Positions 75 through 18,926 of a DNA stretch of 64,000 nt are shown piece by piece. Source of the stretch: an uncultured bacterium (GTDB lineage: Bacteria > Cyanobacteriota > Vampirovibrionia > Gastranaerophilales > Gastranaerophilaceae); the NCBI GenBank assembly GCA_902797985.1, contig CADBUZ010000010.1, positions 6,755-70,754 on the forward strand, in the 5' to 3' direction. The translations under genes and the position numbers were made by a program. The notes below the pieces were generated by a model. That model saw nothing but the letters and a program-made list of their open reading frames with translations. It was not told where the DNA came from and ran no database searches. The stretch's first letter is position 1, and every line of letters starts with the position of its first letter.

Positions 75-2903
75 ATGGTAAGTATAGAAGATATAGAAAA
101 TTTCATAAAGGAAAACAATGTATCGTTATTGGAACAAATCCGAGTAAATCTTAACAAGGAAGAAAAACTCGAATTAGTCAAATATGCTAAGCGTATGATT
201 CCAAAAATAAATAAAGTAACCCCTGACTTAAGATTGTCAATAGCACTTGTTATTGTTGCAAAACAAATATATGACCAAGGTAATTTTTGGGGTAAATTGT
301 CAGAAGCATTGCATATAAAGGATATTCCTTCAAACAAAACTACAATCATTGGTCAAATTTTTCTTAAAACAATAAAAAAATATAATTTATTTGAGGTAGA
401 AAAACATAAGAAAAATAATGAATATGTTCAAAATATATTAGCTCATTGTTTTATTCCGCAAAATTATCGTGAAAATTTCTACGAATTTATTTTTTCTTTT
501 TATGATAGGAATTTGAATAGGTGTATCCCTGAAAATATTGATGAAGATATTCAAGATTTAAAAAGATACATGAAAAAAATACAAAATACTCAAGATGAAG
601 AATTACATTTTGATGTATCTAAAAATCACGCTGCCGTTTCATATAAATTAATCAAATCAATTCAGACAGTTATTGCTGAAGAAGACGTAGTAATTCATAA
701 CACTCTTTTAGAATACTTAGAACTTATCGATAATTACTTTTACAGTAATTCAATAGATAAAATGCCTAAAAGTCTTATAAATTGGTGTGAAAATAAATTT
801 GAAAAGCTATCAAGTAGACGAGGGTCAAAATATAGAAATATCCCTCGGTTTAGAAATTCTACACCATTTATTGGGTATAGTGTTACAAATGGTAAAGCAT
901 ATATTGTTATACCTGAAAGAAAATTTTCAGAAGATATAAGCCAGGCAATTATCAAAATTAAAAAAGACAATGAAGATTACCGTTCTAGGGAGTTAGAATT
1001 ATGTCAAGCCTATGGATGTATAAAATCAGATGATGTTGAATTTATTGAAATCGACAATAATGATTTATTTTCGGAATTTAAGGTTTTTTGTAATGGAAAA
1101 TTAATAAAAACAATTGAAAAGGCTCCATTTAGAATTTTTCAAGATATAAAAAACTCAAATGATAATATATGTATAGATTATTACGAAATTAACGAGTTTC
1201 ATGAAGGTGAGATTTGTATATTAACCCAGCCAGAAAAAACAATGGAACTCAACAACACTACACTGCTATATAAAAATATAAATAATCGTGCATTTAACAC
1301 ATATATTTTCAACATGAAACAAGATACAACAGTATTAATTGATGGTATTCCTTTTGATAACAACTGTTTGGATAATGACAATGAAATATTTAAGCCTTTT
1401 TTTAATTCTCCTAGCAATTTCAGGATGAAAAAAGAGGATGGTAATGATATTATATGTACATATTCTCATCCAAAACTTTATTTCAAAAATCCTGATGAAC
1501 TATTAGAAAAAAATCCTTTTATCCTTTGCTCTAACAATAAACCGATTTGTTTAAAAGAAAACTCCGAAATAAAAAAACTCTCATCTGATATTGAGTATAC
1601 AGTTATAGATTTAACTAACTATATAGATAATAAAATTGGCGAATACACCATACAACTAGATATTTCTGGGCAACATAGAGTTAATCTATGTCAATACTTA
1701 TTAATAGATGATTTGGATTTTAAAACAGATAAAATCTTGTATGTATTTGATCAAAAAGCTATTATTACTCAAAATACACATCATAATGTAGAAGCAGAAA
1801 ATGCAAGAATAATTGATAATATAACTGTTGATAACCCTACAATAATAAATTACGAATACCAAATAGAAGATGATCTTATTGTAAAGTTTGATATAGAACT
1901 TGCTAACAAAAATTATAAAATAGAAATTCCATTACAAGTTTTTCAATATTCACTTGATAATAAAAAATGGTTATACTCGAAAAAAGAGCATATATATAAT
2001 CATGAACTAAAAAATTATTTTTATGTAAAGATTCCAAATATTAATGATGCAATTTTGTATATGAGTAATGATAGTTATTTCCCAATTCATAGTAAAAATA
2101 GGGGTAATTATTTAGAATTTGACATTAGCCAAATCACAGAAAAGGTTAATGAAACAGATTGTTTTAAAGATGACTTAAATATTGAATTTGAATATTATGA
2201 TAAAAAAACTTGTAAAGAAAATATTGGTGAAATTATAAATCAAATAGATATAAAATCTTTTACATTTGATTTTGATGAATCAAAACAATGTGTCTATATT
2301 AGTACTGAATTTTATACAGAAAAATATAAATTTGGTGTTGCATTAAGAAATGTTGAAACTAATGAAATATTGAATTTATATTTACAAAATGGGAAAAACT
2401 ATATACAAGAGCTAGATTCTCAAGGAATTTATGATATCACAAAATACATAGAAAAGAAAAATTCGTTTGGAACAACTTCTGAAGACAAAAAAATAATTGA
2501 AACTCTAGAAAAACAAACACCAACAGAAGTTCTCTTTTTACCATCAGATTGTCAAATAAAAATACAAGATTTATATTATAAAAATCAAAGATATTCATTA
2601 AGGTATGACTACCAAATAGCAAAAGTACGTGCATTCCCAAATTATTTTTGGGGCGTTTTGTATCAAAATTCACAATTTGATTCAAAAAGATATCGTATTA
2701 ATTTTGATTTTGTTCAAGAAAATAAACATAAGATTTATTTCAAATTATCAGATAGTACTGAATTTTGTTACGACACAGAAACAAACTTATTGATTCCATC
2801 TGATATGCCATCATTAGGTAAAAACTATTCCCGCTATCTATTTTTAGATTATGACAATACATATTTTAGTGTTACAATCAAAGAAAACCGAAAGGATTAT
2901 TGA
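75..2903 (+). CDS. Large uncharacterised protein (942 aa), first gene of the helicase operon; DruH-like by position and size only
   Basis: Uninterrupted 942-codon ORF with ATG at 75. Its TGA stop (2901-2903) shares one nt with the ATG (2903) of the next gene (TGATG junction), implying translational coupling. I recognise no catalytic motif, so the product call is positional. Confidence 0.5.
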   Translation: MVSIEDIENFIKENNVSLLEQIRVNLNKEEKLELVKYAKRMIPKINKVTPDLRLSIALVIVAKQIYDQGNFWGKLSEALHIKDIPSNKTTIIGQIFLKTIKKYNLFEVEKHKKNNEYVQNILAHCFIPQNYRENFYEFIFSFYDRNLNRCIPENIDEDIQDLKRYMKKIQNTQDEELHFDVSKNHAAVSYKLIKSIQTVIAEEDVVIHNTLLEYLELIDNYFYSNSIDKMPKSLINWCENKFEKLSSRRGSKYRNIPRFRNSTPFIGYSVTNGKAYIVIPERKFSEDISQAIIKIKKDNEDYRSRELELCQAYGCIKSDDVEFIEIDNNDLFSEFKVFCNGKLIKTIEKAPFRIFQDIKNSNDNICIDYYEINEFHEGEICILTQPEKTMELNNTTLLYKNINNRAFNTYIFNMKQDTTVLIDGIPFDNNCLDNDNEIFKPFFNSPSNFRMKKEDGNDIICTYSHPKLYFKNPDELLEKNPFILCSNNKPICLKENSEIKKLSSDIEYTVIDLTNYIDNKIGEYTIQLDISGQHRVNLCQYLLIDDLDFKTDKILYVFDQKAIITQNTHHNVEAENARIIDNITVDNPTIINYEYQIEDDLIVKFDIELANKNYKIEIPLQVFQYSLDNKKWLYSKKEHIYNHELKNYFYVKIPNINDAILYMSNDSYFPIHSKNRGNYLEFDISQITEKVNETDCFKDDLNIEFEYYDKKTCKENIGEIINQIDIKSFTFDFDESKQCVYISTEFYTEKYKFGVALRNVETNEILNLYLQNGKNYIQELDSQGIYDITKYIEKKNSFGTTSEDKKIIETLEKQTPTEVLFLPSDCQIKIQDLYYKNQRYSLRYDYQIAKVRAFPNYFWGVLYQNSQFDSKRYRINFDFVQENKHKIYFKLSDSTEFCYDTETNLLIPSDMPSLGKNYSRYLFLDYDNTYFSVTIKENRKDY

Positions 2904-5900
2904 TGCTTTTTAGGCCTGCGGAGAGTTCAAATAACATTGTAGAGTTTTACAAAAGATATTTATTAACTACTTTCCAAACAAATAATGAAAAATATAATAA
3001 ACAACTTGCACACGAATTAAATGAACCAAATGCAATAGCAAAAGGTCCGTATATAAGTTTGACTGATTCTTTTGAAAAAGGTAAAACCATACTAGATTTA
3101 ATTAAAGAAAATGAGTTGGTAAAAAGTTTTGGTAAAATAAAAAAACTGAAACCTGAGAGAACTTTATACAAACATCAAGAAGAAGCATTAAGAAAAGCTA
3201 ATCAAAATAAAAATTTAATTGTAACAACAGGTACGGGTTCTGGGAAAACAGAATGTTTCCTTATTCCTGTTATTAACCAATTGCTTAGCGAGCAAGAAAA
3301 TGGCACACTCGATGCCGGAGTGAGAACGCTTGTTGTTTACCCTATGAATGCTTTAGTTAATGATCAAATTCGAAGATTAAGAGAAATTTTTGAAAGTACA
3401 GATGATTGCAACATTACTTTTGGACGATATACTGGCGAAACAAAAGAAAAATATGAGGATGCACTAGAAGAATATAAAAATCGTGAAGGGACTTTGCCTA
3501 TCCAGAATGAATTAATTTCAAGAGATAAAATGCGTGAAAATCCTCCAAACATTCTAATCACAAACTATGCAATGTTAGAATATTTACTGCTGAGACCTGG
3601 TGATAATATTTTCTTTTCAGAAGAAAATGCGAAAAAATGGAGATTTATTGTATTTGATGAAGCACACACATATGAAGGGGCAAAAGGTATAGAAGTTGGG
3701 TCTTTGGTTAGACGTTTAAAAGCGACATTAAATAATCAAGATATTAATTTTATTCTGACCAGTGCTACTTTAGGAGATAAAAGAGATAATCAGAAAATAA
3801 CTGACTTTGGTAAATTGTTATGTGATGCTGAATTTGACCAAGATTCTATAATAAGATCTAAAACGGTTGCCCCTCTTATTAATGAACAAGCTAAAGAGTT
3901 AGATTTTCAAATATATCGTGATTTAGCAGAAAAAATAAGAACTAATGTCACAGAAGAAGATTGTATAAAATATATAGAAGATAAAGGTATTAAGATATAT
4001 CCTTCACTTGAAACAACACTGTATCAAATGATACTTAATGATGTTTTATACAAAAATGTAAGAGATGTATTATATGGCAAACCTAGAACATTACAAAATG
4101 CTGCCGAATTATTAAATTTATCAGAAAATGATTTCACTGATTTTATTACAGTTGCATCAAATGCACTATTAAATGGCGATAAAATATTTGACGCAAAATA
4201 CCATATGTTTTTAAGGGGCATTGAAGGTGTTTATATTACATTAAAACCCAGTGAAAAATTATTTATAAATAAACTTGAAACATATAAACCTACCCCATAC
4301 GCAAATGAAGACGAAATATACAAAGTATTTGAAATATCTTTTTGTAATAATTGCAATGCGACATTTATAACAGGACAGACAGAAAATCGTGAAGGTATAG
4401 ATTATTTAGTTCAAAAATCTAAATATAATGATGATTATAAACCTGAAATATATATGATTAATGAAAATGAAATAGAAGATGAGGATTTTGAATCCGAAAA
4501 ATCAGATATTGAATACCTTATATGTCCACATTGCGGAGCCATAAAGAAGAAATCAGCATTAAAACCTCTTAATTGTGGGCATAATCCTAATGAATTTCAA
4601 ACAATCATAAAGGTTAAAGATTCAGGCGACGTATTGCATACCTGTCCAAGTTGTGGAACATTTAATGCTCAAAGAAGCATAATTCGTCCTTATTTAGTGG
4701 GTAATGAAGCAGTAACAGCAGTTATTGCGACAGCATTATATAATGAATTACCACGTGAAATACTACAAGTTAGAGAAACAGAAAAAAATAATTTATTTTT
4801 TGGACAATCTTCTACGATTTCCGAAAAAATCATGACTAAATTATCAAAACAATTTTTGGCTTTTTCTGATAATAGACAAGCTGCAGCTTTTTTTGCTTCA
4901 TATTTAGAACAAACTTATAGAACAACCTTAATTAAAAGACTCATGACAGAAATAACTTGTACGCACCAAAACAAACTAAATGAAAGAGGGCTTTCAATAA
5001 GTATATTTAAAGATTATTTAGTTGATTTATTTAATAAATATAATATTTTTGAAGATACTACAACGAATGATGTCAGGGAAAAAGAAGCATATATTGCAAT
5101 TATTAAGGAACTTACAAATCTAAAAGCTAAAAGTTCTTTGCAAAACAAAGGAATATTAACATTTGATTTTGCTGTTAATATTCCAGAAATAGAAGAATAT
5201 AATTTATCAAAACAAGAAGCAAATACTATGGTAAAAATTCTAATGACGGAATTTTTAAAACATCGTGCCGTAAGCTTACCTCTAGAATTAACAGATGCAG
5301 ATAGAGAGAAATACTTATTAAATGGTATTCAAATGAGTTTTTCTAAAAATCCACTTGATAATAAAACTATAAAAAGCTGGATTCCTAATAATTTTAAAAG
5401 AAGTAAAAAAATAAAATTTTTAAATACATTACTACCGCAATTGTCAGAAGATGATATTACAGATTTATTATCAATGTTATGGGATTATCTTAAGGATGAA
5501 AGAAATAAATACTTGGTTACTAATAATAATCTTAGTTATTTATTAAATATAGATAAAATTATTGTAAAACCTGTAACAAATTTATATATTTGTCCAAAGT
5601 GTAAAACAATAACTCAATATAACCTGAGAAATATTTGCCCAAAATGTCTAGGGAAATTAGAAGAATACGATTATAAAAAAGATTTGGCAAACAATCATTA
5701 CGCAAGAGTATTCCACGAATTACAAATGGATGATTTAATAGCAAAAGAACATACTGCTCAGTTAGGACAAGATTTAGCTTATGAATACCAAAATGAATTT
5801 AAAAATAAAGAAATTAATGTCTTAAGTTGTTCTACAACTTTTGAAATGGGAGTTGATGTTGGTTCATTAGAAACTGTATTTATGCGTAATATGCCACCAA

Positions 5901-8002
5901 CTCCTGCTAATTACGCACAAAGAGCAGGTCGCGCAGGTAGGAGTTTACATTCTGCTGCATATGCATTAACATATTGTCCAAACAGTTCTCATGACTTAAA
6001 TTATTTTAAAAATCCTAAAAATATGATAGATGGTAAGATTAATCCACCTTCATTTAATATAAATAATAAAAAAATAATCTTAAGACATATTTTTGCATCA
6101 GCATTTTCTGTATTTTGGAAAAATAAAGATTATTCAGAATATTATACAAAAACTATTGGCGAGTTTTTTGACAAATCAGGTTTTACAAAATTTAAAGAAT
6201 ATTTGAATTCTAAGCCATCGGAATTAAAAAATTACCTTTTATCAGTAATTTCCGACAGAGAAACTATAGAATATTTTGATATTAATAATTTTGGTTGGGT
6301 TAAAAATTTATACAGCGAAGATCCTAAAGAACCCGGTGTATTTGATATTGCTAGAAAAAAATATGCAGAGAAATTAGATGAACTTGAAAAAGCTAGAAAA
6401 GAAGAAATCGAAAAAGCTCAAGAAGGGAAAAAATCAAAAATAGAAGGTATTCGTATTTCTATAGATAGTTTAAAAAGGCAACAAACAATTGAATTTTTAT
6501 CTTCAAACAATTTAATCCCAAAATACGGTTTCCCTGTTGATACTGTTGAACTACAAGGATTCAGTAGAAGTGGAATAATATCTAAATTACGTCTTGATAG
6601 AGACTTATTTAATGCTATATCTGAATATGCTCCAGGTTCAGAAATAGTAGCAAATGGTAAATTAATTAGAAGTCAATATGTAAAAAAATTAGAAGGTTAT
6701 GACTGGCCAAGACATAATTATAAAATATGCGAGCATTGTGGAACATTAAATCAAAGTAAAACTGGTTGGGGAGATGAACTTTCAATATGCAAACAGTGTG
6801 GTGAGGATTTATCAGATAAAAAATCTCGTCAATATATTGTGCCAAAATTCGGTTTTATTTCAGAAACAAATGAACCAAAAGATGTCGGAACAGATAAACC
6901 CGAAAAAACATATCACGGACAAATTTTATATATTGGAGATAAAGATAATATTATAGAGAAAAAATGTTTTCTAATTAATAATCAATTTGAGATCGAGCTT
7001 ACTTCAAGTAAGATGGATGAACTTGCTGTAATTAATACATCAAATTTTTATATATGCGATAAATGTGGCTATACTGAAACCGATAAGCACGGAATAAAAG
7101 ATGCAAAAGAAAAAACACACCCTAACCCTCGAGGGTATAATTGTCCAAACAAGCTTTTAACTAAATTAGATATAGGTCATGAATTTCAAACAGATGTTGT
7201 TGTTTTAAGATTTATAGGACAACAATTTGAAGATGATGAAGCTTGGTCAATATTATATTCATTACTTGAAGGGTTAAGTAAATATATTCCAGTTAATAGA
7301 AATGAAATTTCCGGTTGCTTGCATTGGTCTGAAAATAGTAGAGCATTTGTATTATTTGATAATACTCCAGGGGGAGCAGGATATGTAAGGCAACTTATGA
7401 ATCCATTAGTTATGCAAAATGTGTTGTCTACTGCACGTAAAATTGTAGAAGAATGCACATGTGGTGGTGAAGAAGGAGATGCGGCTTGTTACGCTTGTCT
7501 ATGCAACTATTATAATCAAAGACAACACGATAATTTAAAGCGCAAATATGCAATAGATTTTTATAAAAGATTATTATTTGGCAAAAATGATTTTTATGCC
7601 GAAGAACTTGAATTAATAGATAAATACAGTTCTGATGATTCAAAAACGCAAAAATATAAACTAATATTTAATAATAATGGAGTTAATTTAAGCAATAAAA
7701 CATATAAGGAAATATCAGATTACATTGCTGATGAAATAACACAAAAAGAGTTAGAAATTTTTAATTCAATATTACAAATAGAAAACATTGAATCATGCGA
7801 TAAACCATACTATATGCCAACTTTTACTGTGTTTGAGAATAAAGATGTGCTTGACCCAATTTTAGCTTGGCCAAATGCAAAAATAATACTATTTAGCAAT
7901 GATGAAAAGGAATCGTATGAAATTGCAAAGTATTCAGATTGGCATGCATTTTGTTTGTCAGAAGATTTTAATATGTTGAAGATAGTTAAATTATTAAAAT
8001 AG
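2903..8002 (+). CDS. SF2 DEAD/DEAH-box helicase fused to a zinc-ribbon-rich MrfA/DUF1998 domain (DruE-like, about 1699 aa)
   Basis: Helicase motifs: motif I TGTGSGKT (nt 3230-3250), motif II DEAH (nt 3656-3667), LTSAT and motif VI QRAGRAGR. There are multiple CxxC pairs. C-terminal DUF1998/MZB-type signatures: GHEFQTDVVVLRF, FDNTPGGAGYVRQL, CTCGGEEGDAACYACLCNYYNQRQH. Confidence 0.8.
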   Translation: MLFRPAESSNNIVEFYKRYLLTTFQTNNEKYNKQLAHELNEPNAIAKGPYISLTDSFEKGKTILDLIKENELVKSFGKIKKLKPERTLYKHQEEALRKANQNKNLIVTTGTGSGKTECFLIPVINQLLSEQENGTLDAGVRTLVVYPMNALVNDQIRRLREIFESTDDCNITFGRYTGETKEKYEDALEEYKNREGTLPIQNELISRDKMRENPPNILITNYAMLEYLLLRPGDNIFFSEENAKKWRFIVFDEAHTYEGAKGIEVGSLVRRLKATLNNQDINFILTSATLGDKRDNQKITDFGKLLCDAEFDQDSIIRSKTVAPLINEQAKELDFQIYRDLAEKIRTNVTEEDCIKYIEDKGIKIYPSLETTLYQMILNDVLYKNVRDVLYGKPRTLQNAAELLNLSENDFTDFITVASNALLNGDKIFDAKYHMFLRGIEGVYITLKPSEKLFINKLETYKPTPYANEDEIYKVFEISFCNNCNATFITGQTENREGIDYLVQKSKYNDDYKPEIYMINENEIEDEDFESEKSDIEYLICPHCGAIKKKSALKPLNCGHNPNEFQTIIKVKDSGDVLHTCPSCGTFNAQRSIIRPYLVGNEAVTAVIATALYNELPREILQVRETEKNNLFFGQSSTISEKIMTKLSKQFLAFSDNRQAAAFFASYLEQTYRTTLIKRLMTEITCTHQNKLNERGLSISIFKDYLVDLFNKYNIFEDTTTNDVREKEAYIAIIKELTNLKAKSSLQNKGILTFDFAVNIPEIEEYNLSKQEANTMVKILMTEFLKHRAVSLPLELTDADREKYLLNGIQMSFSKNPLDNKTIKSWIPNNFKRSKKIKFLNTLLPQLSEDDITDLLSMLWDYLKDERNKYLVTNNNLSYLLNIDKIIVKPVTNLYICPKCKTITQYNLRNICPKCLGKLEEYDYKKDLANNHYARVFHELQMDDLIAKEHTAQLGQDLAYEYQNEFKNKEINVLSCSTTFEMGVDVGSLETVFMRNMPPTPANYAQRAGRAGRSLHSAAYALTYCPNSSHDLNYFKNPKNMIDGKINPPSFNINNKKIILRHIFASAFSVFWKNKDYSEYYTKTIGEFFDKSGFTKFKEYLNSKPSELKNYLLSVISDRETIEYFDINNFGWVKNLYSEDPKEPGVFDIARKKYAEKLDELEKARKEEIEKAQEGKKSKIEGIRISIDSLKRQQTIEFLSSNNLIPKYGFPVDTVELQGFSRSGIISKLRLDRDLFNAISEYAPGSEIVANGKLIRSQYVKKLEGYDWPRHNYKICEHCGTLNQSKTGWGDELSICKQCGEDLSDKKSRQYIVPKFGFISETNEPKDVGTDKPEKTYHGQILYIGDKDNIIEKKCFLINNQFEIELTSSKMDELAVINTSNFYICDKCGYTETDKHGIKDAKEKTHPNPRGYNCPNKLLTKLDIGHEFQTDVVVLRFIGQQFEDDEAWSILYSLLEGLSKYIPVNRNEISGCLHWSENSRAFVLFDNTPGGAGYVRQLMNPLVMQNVLSTARKIVEECTCGGEEGDAACYACLCNYYNQRQHDNLKRKYAIDFYKRLLFGKNDFYAEELELIDKYSSDDSKTQKYKLIFNNNGVNLSNKTYKEISDYIADEITQKELEIFNSILQIENIESCDKPYYMPTFTVFENKDVLDPILAWPNAKIILFSNDEKESYEIAKYSDWHAFCLSEDFNMLKIVKLLK

Positions 8003-8011
8003 GATGATAGT

Positions 8012-9811
8012 ATGACTGTATATATTGCGGATGAACCAAATGAATATACACCAGAGAGTCAAGAGGATAAAATATTTTATGCTCTAAAAAATAATTTGCC
8101 CAAAGACGAAGATTATTACGTTTTTCATTCACTAAGAGTTACCAACGTTGTTAATAACGTAGTCATTCCAAAGGAAATTGATTTTGTTGTTTTTAATCCT
8201 AAAAAGGGGATAATATGTATAGAAGCAAAATCTGGCAATGTTTATACCAAATTAAATGAAATGAATAAATTAAAATGGTATTATGCAAATGGAGAGATTA
8301 TTGACAAGGGTGGTCCATATTGGCAAGCCGAAAAAAAGCAAATCGCAATAATTAATAGATTTAAAAAAGCAAAATGTTCACATCTTTTGGATAAATGTAA
8401 AATTCATTTTGCAGTTTGGTTTATTTCGTTAACTAAAGAACAATTTCATAATATTACTTTAACTCCGGAAGCTTCAGAGGAACTTACACTAACTAATGAA
8501 GATTTACAAAATCCTGGAGCAGCATTAGATAAAATATTTAGTTTAGATGTTGAAAAACATATTAATACAGAACTAACAAAATTTGATGTAAAAAAAGTAT
8601 TAGAAAATGTGCTGTGTCCAGAATTTAATCTTGTAGCATCTATGGCTTCAGAGATTTCTTTAAAAAGAAGTTCTCTTGCTCGTTTATTAGCGGAACAAGT
8701 AAAAATTTTAGATTTTTTGGATGAACAACAAGTTGTAACTATAAATGGTGCTGGTGGTACTGGTAAAACAATGATCGCATTGGAAAAAGCAAAAAGGTAT
8801 GCAAATAATGAGGAAAATGTTTTGTTTCTATGTTACAACAAAGCTCTATGCGAACACCTAAGAAATAATTATTCTCACTCAAATATAGATTTTTACAATA
8901 TTGATGCATTTGCGTGTTCATATTGTAAAACAGGTATAGCAGACTACAAATTATTAAAGAACAAAATTACAGACGATTATTTAGATGGTAATTTTAAGTA
9001 TAAGCATGTAATAGTTGATGAAGGGCAAGATTTTGGTCAATCAGAAATAGAAGAAAATCAAATATTAGATACATTTGAAGCTGCCGTTGTGAATGAAGAA
9101 GATGAAACTGGTAGCATGTATGTTTTTTATGATAAACAACAATTTATACAGGGTGAAGGTTGTCCAAGTTATATAAAAAATGCTGATTGTAGACTTTCAT
9201 TAACTGTTAATTGTAGAAATACAAATAATATAGCTGAAACATCAATTAGACCATTAAATTTACCTAAAAAATACAGAAATATAAAAATCAGACCAGATAG
9301 TGTAATAGGAGATACAACAACCTTATATGCTTCTGTAGATAAAGATAAACAACTCGAACATTTAAATCTATTCATTAAAAAATGCACAAGCAAAAGTATA
9401 AATCCTAAAGAGATTGTGATAATTTCTTGTAAAACTAAAAGTGAAATTGAAAATGGTAACAGTTTGCTTTCTAATTATGGGTCAGAATATACATGTGATA
9501 GTGTAAACATTAAAATAACAAATTGTGCCGATTTTAAAGGTCTTGAAGCAGATGCGGTTATATTAATAGATGTTGATAAAGGCACCTTTAATACTCAAAA
9601 AAATTGTAATAGGTTCTATGTTGCTGCTTCTAGAGCCAAATTCAATTTATACATAATTTGTGATATGACTCAAGAGGATTGTGCTATCTGTTCAGAAATC
9701 ATACAAAATAAAAAAGAAAATTTACCAGATAATATATCATTAGAAAATATAAAACTGAAAAATGCAGAAAAAAGATTTGCGGCAACCTTAAATGCAACTA
9801 TTTTATCTTAA
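8012..9811 (+). CDS. NERD nuclease-like domain fused to SF1 (UvrD-like) helicase
   Basis: Starts 9 nt after the previous stop with an AGGA-type RBS. N-terminal NERD-like block: FHSLRV...EIDFVVFNPKKGIICIEAKSG. Walker A GAGGTGKT and Walker B VIVDEGQDF. C-terminal FKGLEADAVILIDV...YVAASRAK is typical of UvrD_C_2. Confidence 0.75.
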   Translation: MTVYIADEPNEYTPESQEDKIFYALKNNLPKDEDYYVFHSLRVTNVVNNVVIPKEIDFVVFNPKKGIICIEAKSGNVYTKLNEMNKLKWYYANGEIIDKGGPYWQAEKKQIAIINRFKKAKCSHLLDKCKIHFAVWFISLTKEQFHNITLTPEASEELTLTNEDLQNPGAALDKIFSLDVEKHINTELTKFDVKKVLENVLCPEFNLVASMASEISLKRSSLARLLAEQVKILDFLDEQQVVTINGAGGTGKTMIALEKAKRYANNEENVLFLCYNKALCEHLRNNYSHSNIDFYNIDAFACSYCKTGIADYKLLKNKITDDYLDGNFKYKHVIVDEGQDFGQSEIEENQILDTFEAAVVNEEDETGSMYVFYDKQQFIQGEGCPSYIKNADCRLSLTVNCRNTNNIAETSIRPLNLPKKYRNIKIRPDSVIGDTTTLYASVDKDKQLEHLNLFIKKCTSKSINPKEIVIISCKTKSEIENGNSLLSNYGSEYTCDSVNIKITNCADFKGLEADAVILIDVDKGTFNTQKNCNRFYVAASRAKFNLYIICDMTQEDCAICSEIIQNKKENLPDNISLENIKLKNAEKRFAATLNATILS

Positions 9812-9911: not shown

Positions 9912-10112
9912 ATGACAGGAAAAGATTACACTTTATACGGAACAAAGATTTTGAATCTTAAAACTCAAGAAATCGGCTTGCTGATTTGTTTATGGAAAAA
10001 CAAATTTGCCGATAAAACTGTAGATTTTGCAACTTGCGTTGATAAAACCGGCAAGAGATATAACATTGAACTTGATAATATAAGAGGGTTTGAAGATGAT
10101 TTTGAAAAATAA
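9912..10112 (+). CDS. Small hypothetical protein (66 aa)
   Basis: Strong RBS AGGAAGGAG lies 7 nt upstream of the ATG at 9912. The upstream TTG-initiated extension in the ORF track has no RBS. No recognisable domain. Confidence 0.4.
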   Translation: MTGKDYTLYGTKILNLKTQEIGLLICLWKNKFADKTVDFATCVDKTGKRYNIELDNIRGFEDDFEK

Positions 10113-10374
10113 ATTAACCAAAGAGACATTAGACATTCCATATTCTGAATTCAGAAAAAAGTTTGCAAAAGAAATTCGGGATGCGTTTGAAAGTTACCGC
10201 AAGACACAATTGAACAAATATTCTTGGAACTTCAAAGACGACAATTCATTGGAGTTTAATTTTTATTTTGAACTCCATTGGAATTTCAATCATTTTGGAA
10301 ATAGTAACTGGTATATAGAACTTTATTTGAATAGTATCTTTTACCTGAACTCCAATATTGTACTCAATCATTAA
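10096..10374 (+). CDS. Small hypothetical protein, doubtful
   Basis: The ATG at 10096 overlaps the previous small ORF by 17 nt. The 3' 129 nt overlap the convergent mrr coding region, which argues against at least the 3' part being real. Confidence 0.2.
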   Translation: MILKNKLTKETLDIPYSEFRKKFAKEIRDAFESYRKTQLNKYSWNFKDDNSLEFNFYFELHWNFNHFGNSNWYIELYLNSIFYLNSNIVLNH

Positions 10375-11199
10375 CTTTGCAAGTTGTTTACCATCAACTA
10401 AAATAATGTTCGAATTTATATTATTGGCATATTCTCTAGCTTCATTGGTAAATGATGAAGTTGTAATAAATACTCCACGGTTTGCATTTTGTCCGTGTAC
10501 AGCACCAACAAATTTTTGGACTTCAGGACGTGATACGTTTTCCGCCCACCTTTTTGCTTGAATATAAATTTTGTCCAATCCTAAAACATCTTGCTTAATA
10601 ATCCCGTCGATTCCCTCATCACCGGATTTGCCTCGATTTTGTAATATATCTTTTTCTGAGCCACCATAACCCATTGCCAATAACAATTTCGCAACTAACT
10701 CTTCAAAGAAGGTTGGGGAATTGTCTGCAATCTTAGATAATAAATCCGCTTCTAAATGAGATGTCAATATCGCTCTTGCTTCTGCTATTAACTCATCTGG
10801 AGTTTTTTGTTCTTCAGCTGATTCATAAGAAGTTGTTTCACTTTGTTCAGTATTTACAGTATTTTGAAAATCTCTAAATTCATCATACTGAAGTAAGAAG
10901 TTTTTGGTTATTTTATCGGGATTTGTTTTTATTAAATCAATACCTCGCTGAGTAATTTTTATTACACCTCTTGCTGGGTAATCAAGCAAACACGCTTTTT
11001 TAAGATATGTTCTTGCCCACATAGCACGATTATAATATGTTGCTTGCGTTTGGCTTGGTAATTTTTCTTGCTTATCTTCTTCTGACAAACCAAGCATGTC
11101 AGCAGCTTGTTCGACAATATCTCTGCTTTTGTGTTCGTAATTATCTGCTATGAGTTTAAGTGTTGGTAACATAAAATCTTGATAACTTGGTACTGTCAT
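10246..11199 (-). CDS. mrr: Mrr-family type IV restriction endonuclease (Mrr_N winged helix + Mrr_cat)
   Basis: The N-terminus SYQDFMLPTLKLI...IVEQAADMLGLSEED is typical of Mrr_N. The catalytic block GDEGIDGIIKQDVLGLDKIYIQAKRW...TTSSFT is typical of PD-(D/E)xK Mrr_cat. Confidence 0.8.
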   Translation of the reverse strand: MTVPSYQDFMLPTLKLIADNYEHKSRDIVEQAADMLGLSEEDKQEKLPSQTQATYYNRAMWARTYLKKACLLDYPARGVIKITQRGIDLIKTNPDKITKNFLLQYDEFRDFQNTVNTEQSETTSYESAEEQKTPDELIAEARAILTSHLEADLLSKIADNSPTFFEELVAKLLLAMGYGGSEKDILQNRGKSGDEGIDGIIKQDVLGLDKIYIQAKRWAENVSRPEVQKFVGAVHGQNANRGVFITTSSFTNEAREYANNINSNIILVDGKQLAKLMIEYNIGVQVKDTIQIKFYIPVTISKMIEIPMEFKIKIKLQ

Positions 11200-11247: not shown

Positions 11248-12615
11248 ATGATATACTTGAACCAAAAGGAATGTTTAATGACATTAATAGATAAAGAACT
11301 TGAAGTCGTTAAAATTAGCGATTTAGAAAATATAAAAATACCTAATTATCAAAGACCTTATACTTGGGGAATTGATTCTGTTAATACGCTTTTCGATGAT
11401 ACTTATAAAGCTTATAAAAAACAACTGAATGAATATAGACTCGGTTCCGTTATTTTACACAAAGTTAATAATAGTTATTTTATAGTCGACGGACAACAAA
11501 GGCTAACAACTATTACGCTTTTATTATTTTGCTTAAATAAAAAATGCGGGACATCTGAGAATTTCTGTTTAATGAATTCTGAATATAGTTTTTTATCAAA
11601 CAATACTATATTAACAAATCATGTAATTTTACAGCAAAGAGTTAGTGACTTAGATATTGAAGAATGTAAGAACTATAGGAGCTATATATTATCTCATTGC
11701 ACCTTCGTTAAAATTGTTACTGATGATGAACAAGAAGCCTTTCAGTTCTTTGATTCTCAAAATTCAAGAGGCAAAGAATTAGCACCTCATGATTTATTAA
11801 AGTCATATCATTTAAGAGAAATGAATGATGTTGAAACCGTTAAAAAAGTAAATATAATCAATAAATGGGAAAATATTAATCAAGATGACTTGGAAGTACT
11901 TTTCGAAAATTATTTGTACCCTGTTACACAGTGGTACAGATGTAAAAACGGCCTTTATTATTCTTCTAAAAAGATAGGGCAATTTAAAGGTATTACTAAG
12001 AATAATAACTATAACTATGCTGTTTACCATAAATCAAGTAATCTTTTTGTCGAACAATTTAATCAATCAGGGAATCACGAACTTTTAAATACAACAATGT
12101 TAAATCAATTTCAATTAACTCAACCAATTATTGCAGGAAGTCGGTTCTTTGAATATAGTCTACATTATAAAAATTTATTAGATGCCATTCGTTATAAATT
12201 AGAAATTTATCATAACAATGATGACGAGATACCAAATACAAGATCTGGAGATATTTACATAAAACAGCTATATGAATGTGTACTTTTATTTTTTGCTGAT
12301 AAATTCGGAATAGAATCTATTAATGATTCCGTTTTTCGTATAATTTATACTTGGAGCTATTTATTAAGATTAAAAATGAGTGCCGTTTATCAACAAACAA
12401 TCAATAAGTATGCATGTGGAGATCATAAAGATAGAACAAATATTAATATTCCAATTTTTGCATACATAAATGATTGCGTAAATCCCGAAGACTTAAATAT
12501 GCTCATTATTCCGAAACCTAGCGAAAACGAAATCCCTGCAGAAAATAAAGACAAATACAATGTAATATACCAAAAATTATTTGAAGATAACGGATGGCAA
12601 GAAGATGACAAATAA
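11248..12615 (+). CDS. DUF262 (ParB-like NTPase, GmrS-type) protein without a DUF1524 nuclease domain
   Basis: Motifs IPNYQRPYTW, DGQQRLTT and FDSQNSRGKELAPHDLLKS. No HNH/DUF1524-like C-terminus is seen. The true start may be the ATG at 11278, which has an AGGA RBS. Confidence 0.7.
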   Translation: MIYLNQKECLMTLIDKELEVVKISDLENIKIPNYQRPYTWGIDSVNTLFDDTYKAYKKQLNEYRLGSVILHKVNNSYFIVDGQQRLTTITLLLFCLNKKCGTSENFCLMNSEYSFLSNNTILTNHVILQQRVSDLDIEECKNYRSYILSHCTFVKIVTDDEQEAFQFFDSQNSRGKELAPHDLLKSYHLREMNDVETVKKVNIINKWENINQDDLEVLFENYLYPVTQWYRCKNGLYYSSKKIGQFKGITKNNNYNYAVYHKSSNLFVEQFNQSGNHELLNTTMLNQFQLTQPIIAGSRFFEYSLHYKNLLDAIRYKLEIYHNNDDEIPNTRSGDIYIKQLYECVLLFFADKFGIESINDSVFRIIYTWSYLLRLKMSAVYQQTINKYACGDHKDRTNINIPIFAYINDCVNPEDLNMLIIPKPSENEIPAENKDKYNVIYQKLFEDNGWQEDDK

Positions 12616-14386
12616 TCAAACAAAACCAACCCAAATAGCAATATCTGATATTTTTAAAGATGTTGAATATATTGTTCCAATATATCAAAGAAACTATGCA
12701 TGGAAAGCAAAACAAATAGAGCAATTGATTGAAGATATAAATAGTGCTAAAGACAACTATTATCTTGGTACTTTAATAGTGAATCAAAAAGAACAGAGCG
12801 TTTACGAAGTGATTGATGGCCAACAAAGATTAACAACTCTCTACTTATTAAAATTGTATTTATTAAACAATTCAAATAAGGAAGTCCATATTTATAACAA
12901 AACCCCACTACAATTTGAAGCAAGAGAAAAATATCATAATACATTATTAAATCTAAAAAAAGGTAATAGGATTGATGAAGAATTTGGTGCTACCGAATTA
13001 TATGATGGATACTTTGATATAAAAAAATATTTTAAAAATAACTCTAACAAAATAGATGAAACAAAATTTATAGAAAAACTAAAAAAAGTTTTTATAGTCA
13101 GAGTTCAGGTGCCTAAAGATATTGATTTAAACCACTATTTTGAAATAATGAATACTCGTGGAGAGCAATTAGAACTTCATCAAATTGTAAAAGCAAAAAT
13201 CCTTGCGCAATTAGATGATAACAAAGATAAACGAGTTGCGGCATATATATGGGATAGTTGTGCAAATATGGATTCATACGTACAAATGAGTTTTGATAAA
13301 GCAACTCGCAATAAATTATTTAGTGATAATTGGTCTAAATTAAAAGAAAACATTAAAGATTGGGAAACATTAAAAGAATATTTTTCCTATCAGATTTCAG
13401 AAGAAAAAAATCCAACGCTTCGGGAAATACTTGAGAAAACTACTGAATATAAAATAGAATCTAATATAAATAATGAAGATGTTGACAATGAACGCTTTGA
13501 ATCTGTAATATCCTTTCCAAATTTTATTTTACAAGTCAATGCCGTAATTTTTAATGATGAAGACGATACATCTTTAGATGATAAAAATTTTATACAAGTA
13601 TTAAAAAACAATTGGGAAAGTGCAGATGCAGCAAAATTATTTATTATAAAAATATTGGAATGTCGTGTTTTATTTGATAAATATATTTTGAAACGAGAAT
13701 ATGCAAAGGACTATCAAAAGACAGGTAAATGGTCACTACAAAAGTTGGAAAAGTATAAAGACATTCAAAGAAATAATGCCGAAAAGCCTTTATATAAGGT
13801 TACTGATGTCGAAAACGCTGATACTTTACGTACACTAGAATCGGCATTACGTATTACATACACATCTCCTAAAACAATGCATTGGATTACACTTGTTCTC
13901 AAAAAACTATTAGAAGATGAAAATATAAATTTAGTTGATTTGCTTGAACAGTATTGCCTGCGAAAAATTGATGAAGCTGATTATAAAAACAAAAATGGTT
14001 TTAATATAGAAAGAATTGTTTTTTCATATTTAGATTATTTACTATATAGAGATAATTATAAAGGTATTACAAAAAATGATTGGGAGTTTCAATTTAGAAA
14101 CTCTATTGAACACTTTTATCCGCAACATCCGGATAACGAAGAAAACTGGAATAAGAATGATTTGGATGGATTCGGCAATTTAGCATTAATAACTGTATCA
14201 GGGAATTCAAAGTTTTCTAATATGCCCCCAAGTGCAAAAATTGATTATAAGGAAATAATAAAACAAAGTTTAAAATTACAAATTATGATGAATATTACCA
14301 AAAATAATAATAAAATCTGGACTCCTGAACTTGCAGAAGAGCATAAAAAAGAAATGATAAAAATTCTTGATAATAATGGTATTTAA
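12605..14386 (+). CDS. GmrSD-family type IV restriction enzyme (DUF262 + DUF1524 HNH-like nuclease)
   Basis: N-terminal motifs VPIYQRNYAW, DGQQRLTT and FEIMNTRGEQLELHQIVK. C-terminal IEHFYPQH...GNLALITVSGNSKFSN is DUF1524-like. The ATG at 12605 overlaps the upstream gene by 11 nt. Confidence 0.75.
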   Translation: MTNNQTKPTQIAISDIFKDVEYIVPIYQRNYAWKAKQIEQLIEDINSAKDNYYLGTLIVNQKEQSVYEVIDGQQRLTTLYLLKLYLLNNSNKEVHIYNKTPLQFEAREKYHNTLLNLKKGNRIDEEFGATELYDGYFDIKKYFKNNSNKIDETKFIEKLKKVFIVRVQVPKDIDLNHYFEIMNTRGEQLELHQIVKAKILAQLDDNKDKRVAAYIWDSCANMDSYVQMSFDKATRNKLFSDNWSKLKENIKDWETLKEYFSYQISEEKNPTLREILEKTTEYKIESNINNEDVDNERFESVISFPNFILQVNAVIFNDEDDTSLDDKNFIQVLKNNWESADAAKLFIIKILECRVLFDKYILKREYAKDYQKTGKWSLQKLEKYKDIQRNNAEKPLYKVTDVENADTLRTLESALRITYTSPKTMHWITLVLKKLLEDENINLVDLLEQYCLRKIDEADYKNKNGFNIERIVFSYLDYLLYRDNYKGITKNDWEFQFRNSIEHFYPQHPDNEENWNKNDLDGFGNLALITVSGNSKFSNMPPSAKIDYKEIIKQSLKLQIMMNITKNNNKIWTPELAEEHKKEMIKILDNNGI

Positions 14387-14502: not shown

Positions 14503-15222
14503 CTATGCGAATTTATATTGATTCTTTTTATTACGTTTTATACACAAGGGCTTTAATTTTTCATCATTGTTTAGAAAATTAGAAACATAATTATAACGAT
14601 TTTCAACTAAAATGCTAGCATGGCAAGGTTTATTATTGCTTGTCTTTCGATATGCATATATTTCAATTTTATTGTTGTAAAATACATCTAGGTATTTTTG
14701 CATGTTTGTTACTTTTTTATTGCTTCCGCCCCATGCAATTAAAAGGGTTGAATTTTCTTTATTTTTTAAAACATAATCTTTTATAAATTCAGTATTTATA
14801 TTAGCAATATTTTCATCAATACTTATATTTTGTGAATTACTGTCGCCATCAATACGTGGATATGAGTTTAATACAGTAATCTTGTTATATTTTAATTTAT
14901 AAGCAACCCTAATTATGTTTTTAATAGTATAGTCAAATACTTTTGATTTATCGGTACTTGCAAAAGTATTTGAGGGGTTCATTAATATAGCAACAAACTC
15001 TTTTCCATTTTTAAATTTTGTATTTTTTATTTCTATATTTAAATAGTATCTGTAATCTTGTTTTTGAGGGTTAGGTGAGCTATAATACCCATAACCTGAC
15101 ACATCTAAAATAATATCTTTTAATTTTGTACAGTTCGGTAATTTGTAATTTACTGTTCCCTCAAGATTAATTTTAAATATTTCACCAAGTTTATCAATAA
15201 TTTGCTTAATACAGTATCTCAT
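14503..15222 (-). CDS. DUF1643-family protein with about 70-aa N-terminal extension
   Basis: YRYYLNIE...FVAILMNPSNTFAS...DYTIKNIIRVAYKLKYNKITVLNSYP matches the DUF1643 pattern RY.L.R.W...MLNPS.A....D.T......A...G......NL. Confidence 0.55.
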   Translation of the reverse strand: MRYCIKQIIDKLGEIFKINLEGTVNYKLPNCTKLKDIILDVSGYGYYSSPNPQKQDYRYYLNIEIKNTKFKNGKEFVAILMNPSNTFASTDKSKVFDYTIKNIIRVAYKLKYNKITVLNSYPRIDGDSNSQNISIDENIANINTEFIKDYVLKNKENSTLLIAWGGSNKKVTNMQKYLDVFYNNKIEIYAYRKTSNNKPCHASILVENRYNYVSNFLNNDEKLKPLCIKRNKKNQYKFA

Positions 15223-15279
15223 GCCATAGATTTTATCATAAAAGTAGAATGGGATAATTTATAAAATCTATTTTGGAAA

Positions 15280-15687
15280 TTATTCATACTCAATTCCGAA
15301 TAATTCTTTTTCAATTTGTTTGAAATGTTCCGGAGATAGAGTTTTTTGGGGTTGATTTTGTTTTGGCTCGATAATTTGTCGTTTGACCTGCGGCAGATTT
15401 TTTAAGATATGCATCAGCGAATACATTTCTGCCTGTGGAGTTTGTTGATTATTATCGATGTCGTTTGAAATTTTATCCATAATTTTTTGAGCAAAGTTCA
15501 GTAGTTCTCGGTTAAAAAGCTCTTGCTCTCTGCCTTTTTCTAACCTCTTTTTATCCCAATCATATTCTTTCTTCCAATAAAATAAAGTCCTGCGCGATAG
15601 GTCAAGTTTTGCACCAATCACATCAAGCGGTTGTTTTTCATAAACATACAAATGCTCTGCTTGTTTTAATTTATCTAATTTAGTCAT
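15280..15687 (-). CDS. Small HTH DNA-binding protein (Terminase_5/gpP-like HTH), last gene of the transposition operon
   Basis: AEHLYVYEKQPLDVIGAKLDLSRRTLFYWKKEYDWDKKR resembles the Terminase_5-type HTH. Only 2 nt separate it from the upstream gene. Confidence 0.45.
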   Translation of the reverse strand: MTKLDKLKQAEHLYVYEKQPLDVIGAKLDLSRRTLFYWKKEYDWDKKRLEKGREQELFNRELLNFAQKIMDKISNDIDNNQQTPQAEMYSLMHILKNLPQVKRQIIEPKQNQPQKTLSPEHFKQIEKELFGIEYE

Positions 15688-15689
15688 TT

Positions 15690-16244
15690 TTATACCTCAA
15701 ATATTATTCTGTCTATTGTAAAATTTGTTTTATCGGATAATCTTCGCACCTGAAAATTACAAGTTCTATCAATTATTCCGAGATTTTGAAAATATTTAAT
15801 CATCTGATTTAAAAGCGCTAATGTGTTTTTCAATACTTTTGGCGGTAAGTTTCTGCCTTTGCAAAAATAGTAAAACTTTTGGATATCCTCGCAAGTAATA
15901 TCATTTAAGTTTTTATTTCTGAAAAATGGGGAAATGTGATGCTTTAAAATTCCACAATATTTTCTAAAAGTATTATATTTACAATTATTTTTAACATAAT
16001 TCTCTAAAAAATATTCAATTGCAGCATTAATTGTAATAACCTGATAATTTGTCGTTTGTTTTGTGCAAATGATAAATTCTTGCTTAGGCTTTTCTTCCTG
16101 ATATTTATACATACCTTGTTCAAATACCAATTTATTCCCGTTCAAAAGCTGTTCAAGCTCTGTTTTACAATTGCATTCTGCAATAATTTCAATTTCATCA
16201 AGTGTAAATTCTTTTAAATGTCGCGCTAATTTTTCTATGTTCAT
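15690..16244 (-). CDS. Stand-alone tyrosine-recombinase core-binding (SAM-like) domain protein, no catalytic domain
   Basis: AIEYFLENYVKNNCKYNTFRKYCGILKHHISPFFRNKNLNDITCEDIQKFYYF...LALLNQMIKYFQNLGII follows the Phage_int_SAM/CB domain pattern. The ORF ends after 184 aa. It overlaps the upstream ATPase gene by 4 nt. Confidence 0.5.
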   Translation of the reverse strand: MNIEKLARHLKEFTLDEIEIIAECNCKTELEQLLNGNKLVFEQGMYKYQEEKPKQEFIICTKQTTNYQVITINAAIEYFLENYVKNNCKYNTFRKYCGILKHHISPFFRNKNLNDITCEDIQKFYYFCKGRNLPPKVLKNTLALLNQMIKYFQNLGIIDRTCNFQVRRLSDKTNFTIDRIIFEV

Positions 16245-16846
16245 ATTATTTGATTTATTACCTCCATATTTATTTCTGCTAAATTATTGTCTTTGGCAAA
16301 CGTTTCCATTTTATTTATTAATTGAACAATTTGTCGAAATCTGTTGTATTTTGTGTGGATATATTCAATTGTTTCTGGAGTAAACGTAATTTCGGATAAT
16401 TGGTTAATTATTAGCCCTATATCATTTACCCCAAAAGTTTCAAATTTTAGAATCTCTGAAAATCTGTCATAGAGATGCTTGTATCTTTCAAGTTTTCTGT
16501 GTGCTAAACCCATGCCGATAAAAATTATTGGGCAGCCGGTTTCGTCGTGAATATCACGCAAAGTTTCAATGGTTTTATAGTTATTCATCAGATAATCAAT
16601 TTCATCAATAAAAATTACCTGCGGATTTTGTTTTAGCTTTTTAACCACAATATTAATAAGGTTTGATGCACGCAGATAAATCCCGTCATATTTACAAGCA
16701 AGCCACAAAGCTGTTTGTGATTTACCAAGTCCCGGCTCACCATAAACCAATCCCATTTTTGGAATATTTTTTGGTTTGTTTATTAAATTTTCAACAAGTC
16801 CGATAAAGTTTTTGACGTTAGTAGTTTTTACAAAAATCTTATTCAT
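16241..16846 (-). CDS. AAA+ transposition ATPase (TniB/TnsC/MuB-like), unusually short (201 aa)
   Basis: Walker A GEPGLGKSQ and Walker B VIFIDEIDYL. It overlaps the transposase gene by 8 nt. Confidence 0.7.
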   Translation of the reverse strand: MNKIFVKTTNVKNFIGLVENLINKPKNIPKMGLVYGEPGLGKSQTALWLACKYDGIYLRASNLINIVVKKLKQNPQVIFIDEIDYLMNNYKTIETLRDIHDETGCPIIFIGMGLAHRKLERYKHLYDRFSEILKFETFGVNDIGLIINQLSEITFTPETIEYIHTKYNRFRQIVQLINKMETFAKDNNLAEINMEVINQII

Positions 16847-18545: not shown

Positions 18546-18652
18546 AATGTATTACCTCACACACATTCATCACTCACCTTTCGGAATAAATCAAGTCCTA
18601 AATCTCAATCTCAGAGACATTTTGACACATATCAAAATGTGAGATAAATTAT

Positions 18653-18780: not shown

Positions 18781-18926
18781 AAATGGACCGGCAAATCTCT
18801 ACACTATAAATCTGCCTCTATTACCCTAAACATCGGCACTATTACGATAAAACTCCCATCACAACTGTCCTGAAAACCTATACTTGGTGGTTCTCGTCCT
18901 TACTAATTTATGTATATAATTAAAAA

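Follow-up and report, generated by a model that had tools for sequence, protein, structure and literature searches.

A Druantia-related locus in a Gastranaerophilaceae genome: a DruE-type helicase, its co-varying C-terminal domain and a NERD nuclease-helicase

Few defence systems are as widespread as Druantia. Its type III form is a two-gene system of Proteobacteria or Actinobacteria, whose mechanism has been worked out only in preprints of 2025-2026. The giant helicase DruE of type III-A carries a C-terminal extension in which an inactive PLD nuclease domain is followed by an active one (Bell et al., 10.1101/2025.09.15.676423; 10.64898/2026.05.12.724681), and DruE of types I and II has been described to end in inactivated Vsr domains (Bell et al., 10.1101/2025.09.15.676423). 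Cryo-electron microscopy (cryo-EM) of the partner protein DruH displays a globular N-domain, immunoglobulin (Ig)-like subdomains and a C-terminal domain; the same studies give DruH a role in binding single-stranded DNA (ssDNA) or as a sensor, with an essential regulatory surface at its N-terminus (10.64898/2026.05.12.722862; 10.64898/2026.05.12.724681). For the ssDNA binding of DruH, competition by ATP has been reported. Here, we describe a three-gene locus at the start of a 64,000-nt stretch of DNA (the window) from an uncultured Gastranaerophilaceae bacterium (contig CADBUZ010000010.1). It encodes a partner protein of 942 amino acids (aa; g1), a DruE-type helicase of 1699 aa (g2) and a 599-aa protein in which a NERD nuclease domain precedes a superfamily 1 (SF1) helicase (g3). 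Among homologous helicases, the C-terminal domain (CTD) of g2 is found only where a g3-type gene follows. We consider it probable that the trio works as an anti-phage system related to Druantia, with three components, within a mobile defence island; the NERD-helicase would serve as its effector and dock on the helicase.

The resemblance to Druantia III is broad. Both combine a giant DEAH helicase of the DruE/YprA family, equipped with an MZB domain, with a single partner of ~950-1100 aa of no known family, which precedes the helicase and is translationally coupled to it. In both, the partner has a globular N-domain and Ig-like repeats (predicted in the case of g1) and evolves faster than the helicase, and both are carried in defence islands or on mobile elements. 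The differences are equally distinct. The g1 protein is no detectable member of the DruH/YjiT family (STY4851/ECs_5259; PF27205 + PF27201), g2 is ~400 aa shorter than type III-A DruE, lacks both of its PLD domains and ends in another domain of ~113 aa, most loci contain a third gene encoding a NERD-SF1 helicase, and the loci come from low-GC Clostridia, Chloroflexota and Gastranaerophilales.

Other described systems share single traits with the locus. ARMADA type II also pairs a Druantia-related YprA helicase (ArmC) with a subsequent SF1 UvrD-like helicase that bears an N-terminal nuclease-type domain (ArmD). However, ArmD joins a RelE-like domain to a GajB/UvrD-like helicase, whereas the N-domain of g3 has a NERD DNase-type fold. 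A Vsr nuclease, predicted to be active, is part of ArmC itself; g2 contains no nuclease. The BrxHII-like helicase and the PglX methyltransferase of ARMADA type II are present neither in the window nor in related loci. Since a DruH-family protein, PLD domains, a BrxHII-like helicase and PglX are all missing, the locus fits neither type III nor ARMADA type II. To Druantia type I it is linked by DruE1, the top PADLOC profile for g2, and by a type I locus (L043) that carries the same CTD and NERD-helicase; it differs from type I by the lack of DruA-D genes, and g2 is only ~25% identical to the L043 DruE. With regard to DruA-D, g1 gave no PADLOC match, and none occurs among the visible upstream neighbours of the relatives. 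DISARM likewise operates with a YprA-type helicase with DUF1998/MZB and a nuclease in trans, and some DISARM-type loci (L041, L046) carry the CTD on DrmB together with a g3-type gene; in contrast, the helicase in the window is of the unsplit DruE type and comes without a DrmC PLD gene, DrmE or a methyltransferase. Full-text literature searches revealed no described Druantia system with a NERD helicase, and the sole mention of NERD concerned the unrelated TALON system.

Co-variation of the DruE C-terminal domain and the NERD-helicase

A scan of one genome per species, with a 12-sequence g1 alignment as query, yielded 26 loci. The g1 homologue adjoins DruE in 26/26 and lies directly upstream of it in 24, and a g3 homologue follows DruE in 17 of these 24, at gaps of -4 to +12 nt. 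The other seven consist of g1 and a CTD-less DruE and contain no g3. A CTD-less pair of this kind occurs in Herbinix hemicellulosilytica (L014). The closest genome locus belongs to a metagenome-assembled genome of Candidatus Gastranaerophilales (L012), with g1, g2 and g3 being 77%, 90% and 85% identical to the window; the other loci of the scan come from Clostridia, plus one from Chloroflexota. The flanks vary among loci (L001, L002 and L008 among those viewed) while the trio stays together, and clustering of the flanking open reading frames (ORFs) detected no fourth conserved gene, only other defence genes that recur, such as HsdR of type I restriction-modification (RM). Two distant loci display the reverse order (L036, 5389-12586; L037, 2-6659): a DruE-like helicase comes first, a weakly g1-like protein (E ~1e-20) follows, and both CTD and g3 are absent.

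No solitary g3 was encountered, as every g3-type gene examined directly follows an MZB helicase, both in the 17 genome loci and in 5/5 sampled relatives. An initial annotation, made from the letters of the window, had asked whether the three genes recur together in other genomes and had allowed that the NERD helicase might routinely stand alone. The trio does recur, with g3 placed after the g1-DruE pair in 17/24 loci, and a g3-type gene on its own is seen in none of the sampled loci.

The length of DruE depends on whether g3 follows. DruEs succeeded by g3 measure 1691-1711 aa, intact DruEs without g3 1578-1612 aa, and alignment of the two groups places the gap entirely at the C-terminus, at residues ~1587-1699 of the window protein. 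This segment accounts for most of the 166 aa of g2 beyond its MZB domain, which divide into a variable acidic linker and the conserved domain of ~113 aa. The extra stretch reported by the initial annotation after the DUF1998 module thus exists, although it is somewhat shorter than the ~180 aa given there and consists mostly of this conserved domain. We built a hidden Markov model (HMM) of the CTD from alignment A5 and searched it over all ORFs of the fetched loci, and subsequently over the proteins of L045 and L046. It matches the extreme C-terminus of every helicase that precedes a g3-type gene and none of the others, including E. coli DruE. Among 37 helicases, 27 have both CTD and g3 (or a remnant of it), 10 have neither, and 0 are discordant (Fisher p=3e-9, calculated without phylogenetic correction).

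The pattern is scattered over the family. In a neighbour-joining tree of the DruE core, g3-less loci are interspersed with g3-bearing ones and branch off at 4 or more separate points. One locus (L022) retains the CTD beside a disrupted g3, and in its sister (L018) the 93%-identical DNA stops exactly where the CTD would begin. Judged from these sequences, the CTD and g3 appear to have been repeatedly lost or gained jointly, as one unit.

The fold of the CTD offers a single lead. In an hhalign comparison with a Vsr protein, 14 columns were aligned at a non-significant E=0.26, in which the CTD stretch 'dliW..kKV.lFL' is paired with the Vsr 'PDIVLTKYKIVIFC' strand pair. A profile search of the PDB with the CTD returned only chance matches to gp120 (E>0.2), and an hhalign comparison of the CTD with the preceding part of a type I DruE also fell short of significance. 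Conserved in the CTD are a KPxY motif, W82 and an FC motif.

The same combination is also present outside the g1-type loci. The five g3 relatives that we sampled, at 41-46% identity to g3, all directly follow an MZB helicase with a C-terminal CTD, yet the helicases belong to different systems. One (L040) is a further g1-type trio, in which the upstream protein matches the g1 profile at 1e-260. Another (L043/L044, 1-10713) is a genuine Druantia type I, with DruE1 at 1853 bits over the whole profile and DruD1 at 5.5e-23; its DruE carries the CTD at 1776-1894, past the end of the DruE1 profile, and a NERD-SF1 helicase 44% identical to g3 begins 3 nt after it. DISARM-type sets (L041/L042/L046, 1-12135) display DrmE at 5e-17, DrmA at 7e-221 and DrmB at 1e-81, with the CTD at 647-763 of DrmB, again past the end of the family profile. 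After DrmB come the g3-type NERD helicase, a 69-aa ORF and a C5 DNA methyltransferase. A weak PLDc_2 match on the cut upstream gene was noted in L046 only. Finally, one locus (L045, 1072-10716) encodes a DruE of 1742 aa with CTD and a NERD helicase, preceded by an 898-aa protein. As this protein matches neither the g1 family profile, DruH nor any PADLOC model, it counts as a further type of partner.

These occurrences raise the possibility that CTD and NERD-SF1 helicase form a portable two-part effector cassette, plugged repeatedly into different immune systems built around YprA/MZB helicases and lost as a unit. We hold this reading to be about evenly balanced between right and wrong. The systems fitted with it would comprise the g1-type loci, Druantia type I and, on DrmB, sets of the DISARM type, besides one or more additional types of partner. 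On the sequence pattern, g1 and DruE would represent the core unit, and CTD plus g3 an accessory cassette common to YprA-helicase systems.

The partner protein, the helicase and the nuclease-helicase

The g2 protein is a DruE. Two PADLOC profiles match it over nearly its full length, DruE1 at 2.4e-174 (580.7 bits) and DruE3 at 1.8e-171 (571.1 bits), and the best non-DruE family, SngC, reaches 102 bits. Pfam detects DEAD (3.4e-26), Helicase_C (1.2e-11) and MZB/DUF1998 (4e-11), helicase motifs I, II and VI are all intact (Table 1), and nine CxxC pairs are present. The initial annotation, which had recognised the superfamily 2 motifs, CxxC ribbons and a DUF1998-type C-terminal module, is borne out here. 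Two other assignments were considered and rejected: a type IV DruE (DruE4 at 372 bits, below DruE1 and DruE3) and a repair-type YprA helicase (TIGR03817 at 103 bits against a cut-off of 874, compared with 580 bits for DruE).

With ~25% identity in either case, g2 is as far from the L043 DruE of type I as from E. coli DruE of type III-A. The alignments to the two types end near residue 1555, the one to E. coli DruE close to 1553, and E. coli DruE runs ~380 aa further; the Pfam scan gave no match of g2 to a nuclease family, PLD included. Because no nuclease family was detected and the alignment stops before the PLD extension, g2 belongs to a separate DruE clade without a recognisable nuclease.

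The NERD and UvrD_C_2 domains of g3 are supported by Pfam (residues 17-123 for NERD; UvrD_C_2 at 1e-8), in line with its earlier description as a NERD-like nuclease joined to an SF1 helicase. The NERD residues E55, D57, E71 and K73 are invariant in 16 members of the g3 family, as are Walker A, the DEGQ box and the later SF1 motifs in the same 16 (Table 1), so that on sequence grounds both nuclease and helicase look active. The best PADLOC model is RTasNERD-Hel (8.3e-49), which covers g3 almost entirely (12-549 vs 11-510 of 519 profile positions). Unlike in that system, there is no reverse transcriptase nearby, with no such domain in the ten ORFs scanned at 9.9-18.5 kb of the window nor beside the trio in L001, L002 and L008, and the g3 clade is tied to MZB helicases. 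The likening of g3 to Nhi in the initial annotation fares less well. The order of domains, nuclease followed by SF1 helicase, is shared; however, the Nhi model matches weakly and only in part (2.9e-8, residues 232-408), and g3 never stands alone in the sampled loci. A match to the GajB model is weak as well. Proteins of the g3 type exist in the thousands.

The partner g1 is considerably more elusive. The initial annotation could read no motif in it, and Pfam, NCBIfam and PADLOC are likewise blank. A word-based search retrieved only 12 close homologues; a profile search over 1.84 billion representatives retrieved 371 g1-related clusters, mostly of 920-990 aa. The 12 PADLOC DruH models match neither g1, nor 50 diverse relatives, nor 8 further distant relatives with N-terminal extensions, whereas full-length E. 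coli YjiT (1096 aa), whose gene adjoins a DruE-type helicase gene beside mcrBC, matches 12/12 as positive control. Among precomputed families, DruH homologues carry PF27205 + PF27201 and g1 homologues none. When hhalign was run with the g1 family against 22 aligned DruH sequences, the outcome was not significant (E=0.095, probability 0.6%). The N-terminal 262 residues alone align colinearly, 4-250 against 11-247 of DruH, with P=0.0058 and a probability of 6%, which is a hint only; the beta-rich remainder gave P=0.75. A transitive link between g1 and DruH through relatives was sought and rejected: the PADLOC scans of 58 relatives yielded none, and two carry an unrelated PDC-S14/S57-like N-domain. 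These two distant relatives (P0105 and P0120, ~1090-1130 aa) have an N-terminal extension that matches the PADLOC candidate models PDC-S14/PDC-S57, down to 1.5e-13.

Structure prediction offers another level of comparison. With only 13 close homologues, the AlphaFold 2 (AF2) model of g1 had a predicted local distance difference test score (pLDDT) of 49.5, and a 50-sequence alignment was used instead, which raised it to 83. In this model, residues 1-247 form helices and 265-940 beta-sandwich domains, and the residues that are near-invariant in the family cluster in the helical N-domain. Foldseek against PDB and BFVD returned only tandem Ig/fibronectin type III (FN3) ectodomains and Ig-repeat phage tail or baseplate proteins, at low TM-scores; no DruH structure was among the matches in the PDB copy to April 2026. 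The predicted architecture matches the layout published for DruH, as judged by comparison with the published description.

Distinct rates of change point in the same direction. Where g2 is 49-55% and g3 37-47% identical to the window, g1 reaches only 24-27%, and in L002 the identities of g1, g2 and g3 are 75%, 97.5% and 99.5%, respectively. The divergence of g1 is distributed along the whole protein. By these identities, g1 evolves much faster than g2 or g3, and the same contrast has been reported for DruH and DruE (10.64898/2026.05.12.724681). Compared with window positions 75-9811, L002 and L003 display a mosaic divergence, with g1 at 75% identity beside g2 and g3 at 97.5% and 99.5%; the partner gene by itself may have diversified rapidly or been replaced.

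In sum, g1 is DruH-like in size, position, predicted architecture and fast evolution, but is not a detectable member of the DruH/YjiT family. The "type III" in the label given by the initial annotation is not justified: no sequence test tied g1 significantly to DruH/YjiT, and g2 lacks PLD domains and is equally distant from types I and III-A. The annotation had further named, as grounds for doubt, a g1 unrelated to DruH together with a trio that is not conserved: no significant sequence relationship was found, yet the trio recurs. If the portable-cassette reading is true, g1 would either be analogous to DruH or share a very remote ancestry with it.

Layout and genomic surroundings of the locus

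The operon is as described in the initial annotation, with three co-directional, tightly spaced ORFs of the reported lengths (from the ORF list, g2 being counted from its ATG). The g2 ATG at 2903 overlaps the TGA stop of g1 in a TGATG at 2901-2905, and the g3 start codon lies 9 nt past the g2 stop (8002/8012), both as read before. From this spacing, g3 appears translationally coupled to g2. Since only 74 nt of the window precede g1, the view of the upstream context is limited. In this AT-rich DNA (27% GC), a consensus promoter scan was uninformative (83 promoter-like sites vs 74 expected), so the extended -10 element in Table 1 is a candidate only; the terminator scan was equally uninformative, with 4 terminator-like sites found vs 2.9 expected.

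Table 1. Positions of the genes, domains and candidate promoter element of the trio in the window
Feature	Position	Strand	Basis
Candidate extended -10 promoter element TGgTATAAT, 21 nt upstream of the g1 start codon	46..54	+	Read from sequence
g1, 942-aa DruH-like partner, candidate sensor, cytoplasmic	75..2903	+	ORF; ATG start; no Pfam/PADLOC/NCBIfam match
g1 N-terminal all-helical globular domain (predicted), aa 1-247	75..815	+	AF2 model; most conserved part of family
g1 beta-rich region (predicted), aa 265-940: tandem Ig/FN3-like beta-sandwich array and C-terminal beta domain	867..2894	+	AF2, Foldseek
g2, 1699-aa DruE/YprA-family superfamily 2 helicase without nuclease domain	2903..8002	+	PADLOC, Pfam
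g2 RecA1/DEAD domain, aa 90-292; motif I (Walker A) GSGKT 112, DEAH 252	3170..3778	+	Pfam, motifs
g2 Helicase_C (RecA2) core, aa 945-1013; motif VI QRAGRAGR 1006	5735..5941	+	Pfam, motifs
g2 MZB/DUF1998 zinc-binding domain, aa 1452-1533	7256..7501	+	Pfam PF09369, 44 bits vs cut-off 24.2
g2 CTD, aa ~1587-1699; proposed docking site for g3	7661..7999	+	Alignment of DruEs with and without g3; HMM
g3, 599-aa NERD nuclease and SF1 (UvrD-like) helicase	8012..9811	+	ORF, Pfam, PADLOC
g3 NERD (PD-(D/E)xK) nuclease domain	8060..8380	+	Pfam NERD 1.2e-9 and family alignment
g3 SF1 helicase core: Walker A GAGGTGKT 246-253, DEGQ 336-339, NCRNT, KGLEAD, YVgxSRA	8702..9667	+	Pfam, alignment

Directly downstream of the trio, on the minus strand, lies a Mrr-type type IV restriction enzyme (10246-11199; PADLOC mREase_IV 1e-85), followed by a DUF262/GmrSD-like pair (11248-12615, GmrSD_N + DUF7834; 12581-14386, GmrSD_N + GmrSD_C). 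L002 and L003 have the same Mrr and GmrSD-like genes after their trio; L001 and L008 do not. The gap between g3 and Mrr holds two small ORFs without family match, one of 66 aa (9912-10112) and one of 94 aa (10090-10374), the latter running into the 3' end of Mrr; at this position, L002/L003 have ORFs of 66 and 77 aa.

A transposition module occupies 14503-19009 on the minus strand, with a Mu/TnsB-like transposase (16839-18545) and a TniB-like AAA ATPase (16241-16846), and also holds a small Phage_int_SAM_3 protein, a DUF1804-like protein and a DUF1643 protein. A tRNA-Leu(CAG) is found beside it at 18926-19009. L001 has a comparable module right before its trio. Such modules near the trio in both the window and L001 suggest that a Tn7/Mu-like element carries the defence genes as cargo. 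The G+C content is 26-28% up to ~16 kb of the window, vs 30-37% in most of the remainder.

Where visible, the neighbours upstream of the relatives' trios are a 202-aa ORF, transposase genes or type I RM genes. The 202-aa ORF lies on the same strand ~165 nt upstream of g1 (L001, 9227-9835; L008, 155-763; L009, 578-1186; L010, 151-759); it has no PADLOC match and no Pfam family on record, and L002 and L003 lack it. A group of large proteins homologous to one another is encoded upstream of g1 in L014, L015, L029, L031, L032, L035 and L002 (5868-8654). In g3-less loci, such large proteins are sometimes encoded 64-146 nt from g1 on the same strand. Pfam domains identify the L002 protein at 5868-8654 as HsdR of type I restriction.

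Proposed mechanism, competing explanations and significance

We propose a division of labour in which g1 most likely takes the place of DruH and, by analogy, would sense the infection through a phage protein or a DNA structure and license the helicase. The motor would be g2. As characterised relatives do, it would unwind DNA in the 3'-to-5' direction after loading onto phage DNA that has a 3' tail or contains ssDNA. Its CTD would be the adaptor that recruits or couples g3, a docking that we infer from their co-variation. DruE would then unwind and present the phage DNA and g3 would degrade it, thereby supplying in trans the nuclease that g2 lacks, driven by its own SF1 motor. Of the two possibilities raised by the initial annotation, a Druantia-like pair that has recruited a third component or two adjacent systems on one transcript, the former is favoured by synteny, by the helicase linkage of 5/5 relatives and by the co-variation of CTD and g3.

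Several observations weigh against this model. The fold of the CTD could not be assigned, with Pfam returning only noise for 12 CTDs and no Vsr or DUF559 match. The CTD coding sequence is contiguous with g3, and single recombination events that add or remove both may explain part of the co-variation, in place of a functional tie. A role in defence is deduced for members of the clade from homology and context. The similarity of g1 to DruH in sequence is not significant, and its role as sensor is assigned by analogy. Seven loci persist with g1 and a CTD-less DruE and no evident nuclease; g3 is therefore accessory and not essential to the core. DruH dimers have been reported with nuclease activity, and the effector need not be g3.

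The main rival to the docking model uses the same parts in reversed order, and we judge it unlikely. Here, the NERD domain and SF1 motor of g3 would act first, nicking or resecting phage DNA into 3' ssDNA tails, and DruE would be the executing motor, perhaps handing over to RecBCD/AddAB. This order would suit the need of characterised DruE for a 3' overhang or exposed ssDNA, as known from the literature, and a dependence of Druantia III on RecBCD components has been described. The g3-less loci would fit too: they retain g1 and DruE and thereby show that DruE can act at the core in the absence of g3. Yet it leaves unexplained why a nuclease-less DruE pairs with g3, or why there is a dedicated CTD. 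The repertoire of YprA/MrfA helicases, which includes housekeeping repair enzymes, and the location on a Mu/Tn7-like element could alternatively point to a DNA-repair or mobile-element maintenance module of a transposon, such as an MrfA/YprA-like repair helicase set. We regard this as very improbable, given the far higher DruE than TIGR03817 score of g2 (580 vs 103 bits, the latter below its cut-off of 874), the retention of the trio among variable flanks and the defence nature of the flanking genes (Mrr, GmrSD, type I RM).

Nhi and other single-protein nuclease-helicases defend alone, and g3 could in principle do the same. In that case g1 and g2 would be one system and g3 a stand-alone Nhi-like second one on the same transcript, and the CTD would be a degenerate nuclease remnant unrelated to g3, lost along with it only by virtue of adjacency. 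The weak matches of g3 to the Nhi and GajB models, the seven loci without g3, and the alignment of the CTD with the Vsr strand pair (E=0.26), taken together with the inactivated Vsr domains that Bell et al. describe in type I/II DruE, would be compatible with this. However, among the 37 helicases there is no CTD without g3, save in L022 where g3 is freshly disrupted, and no g3 without CTD. A deletion of g3 only should be at least as easy as one at the domain boundary, yet it is never seen. The CTD and g3 are moreover paired on three other helicase architectures, past the ends of the family profiles, all 5/5 sampled g3 relatives are linked to helicases, and the Nhi match is partial. Two independent systems are thus disfavoured by the co-variation and the absence of solo g3 genes, and we consider them improbable.

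Returning to the docking model, the presence of the CTD if and only if g3 is present points to a contact site and provides a testable model of coupling between DruE and an effector. The occurrence of the same add-on on Druantia I and DISARM-type loci suggests a common accessory layer across YprA-helicase systems. The DruH-like shape of g1, which comes without sequence similarity, makes it a test of which features of DruH matter, the regulatory surface of the N-domain and the Ig-like array among them. Current tools would label the g1-type branch at best as an orphan DruE. If the cassette reading is true, effectors of helicase-based immunity would be exchanged via a transferable adaptor domain, and the g1-type loci would define an unannotated Druantia subtype centred on gut Firmicutes.

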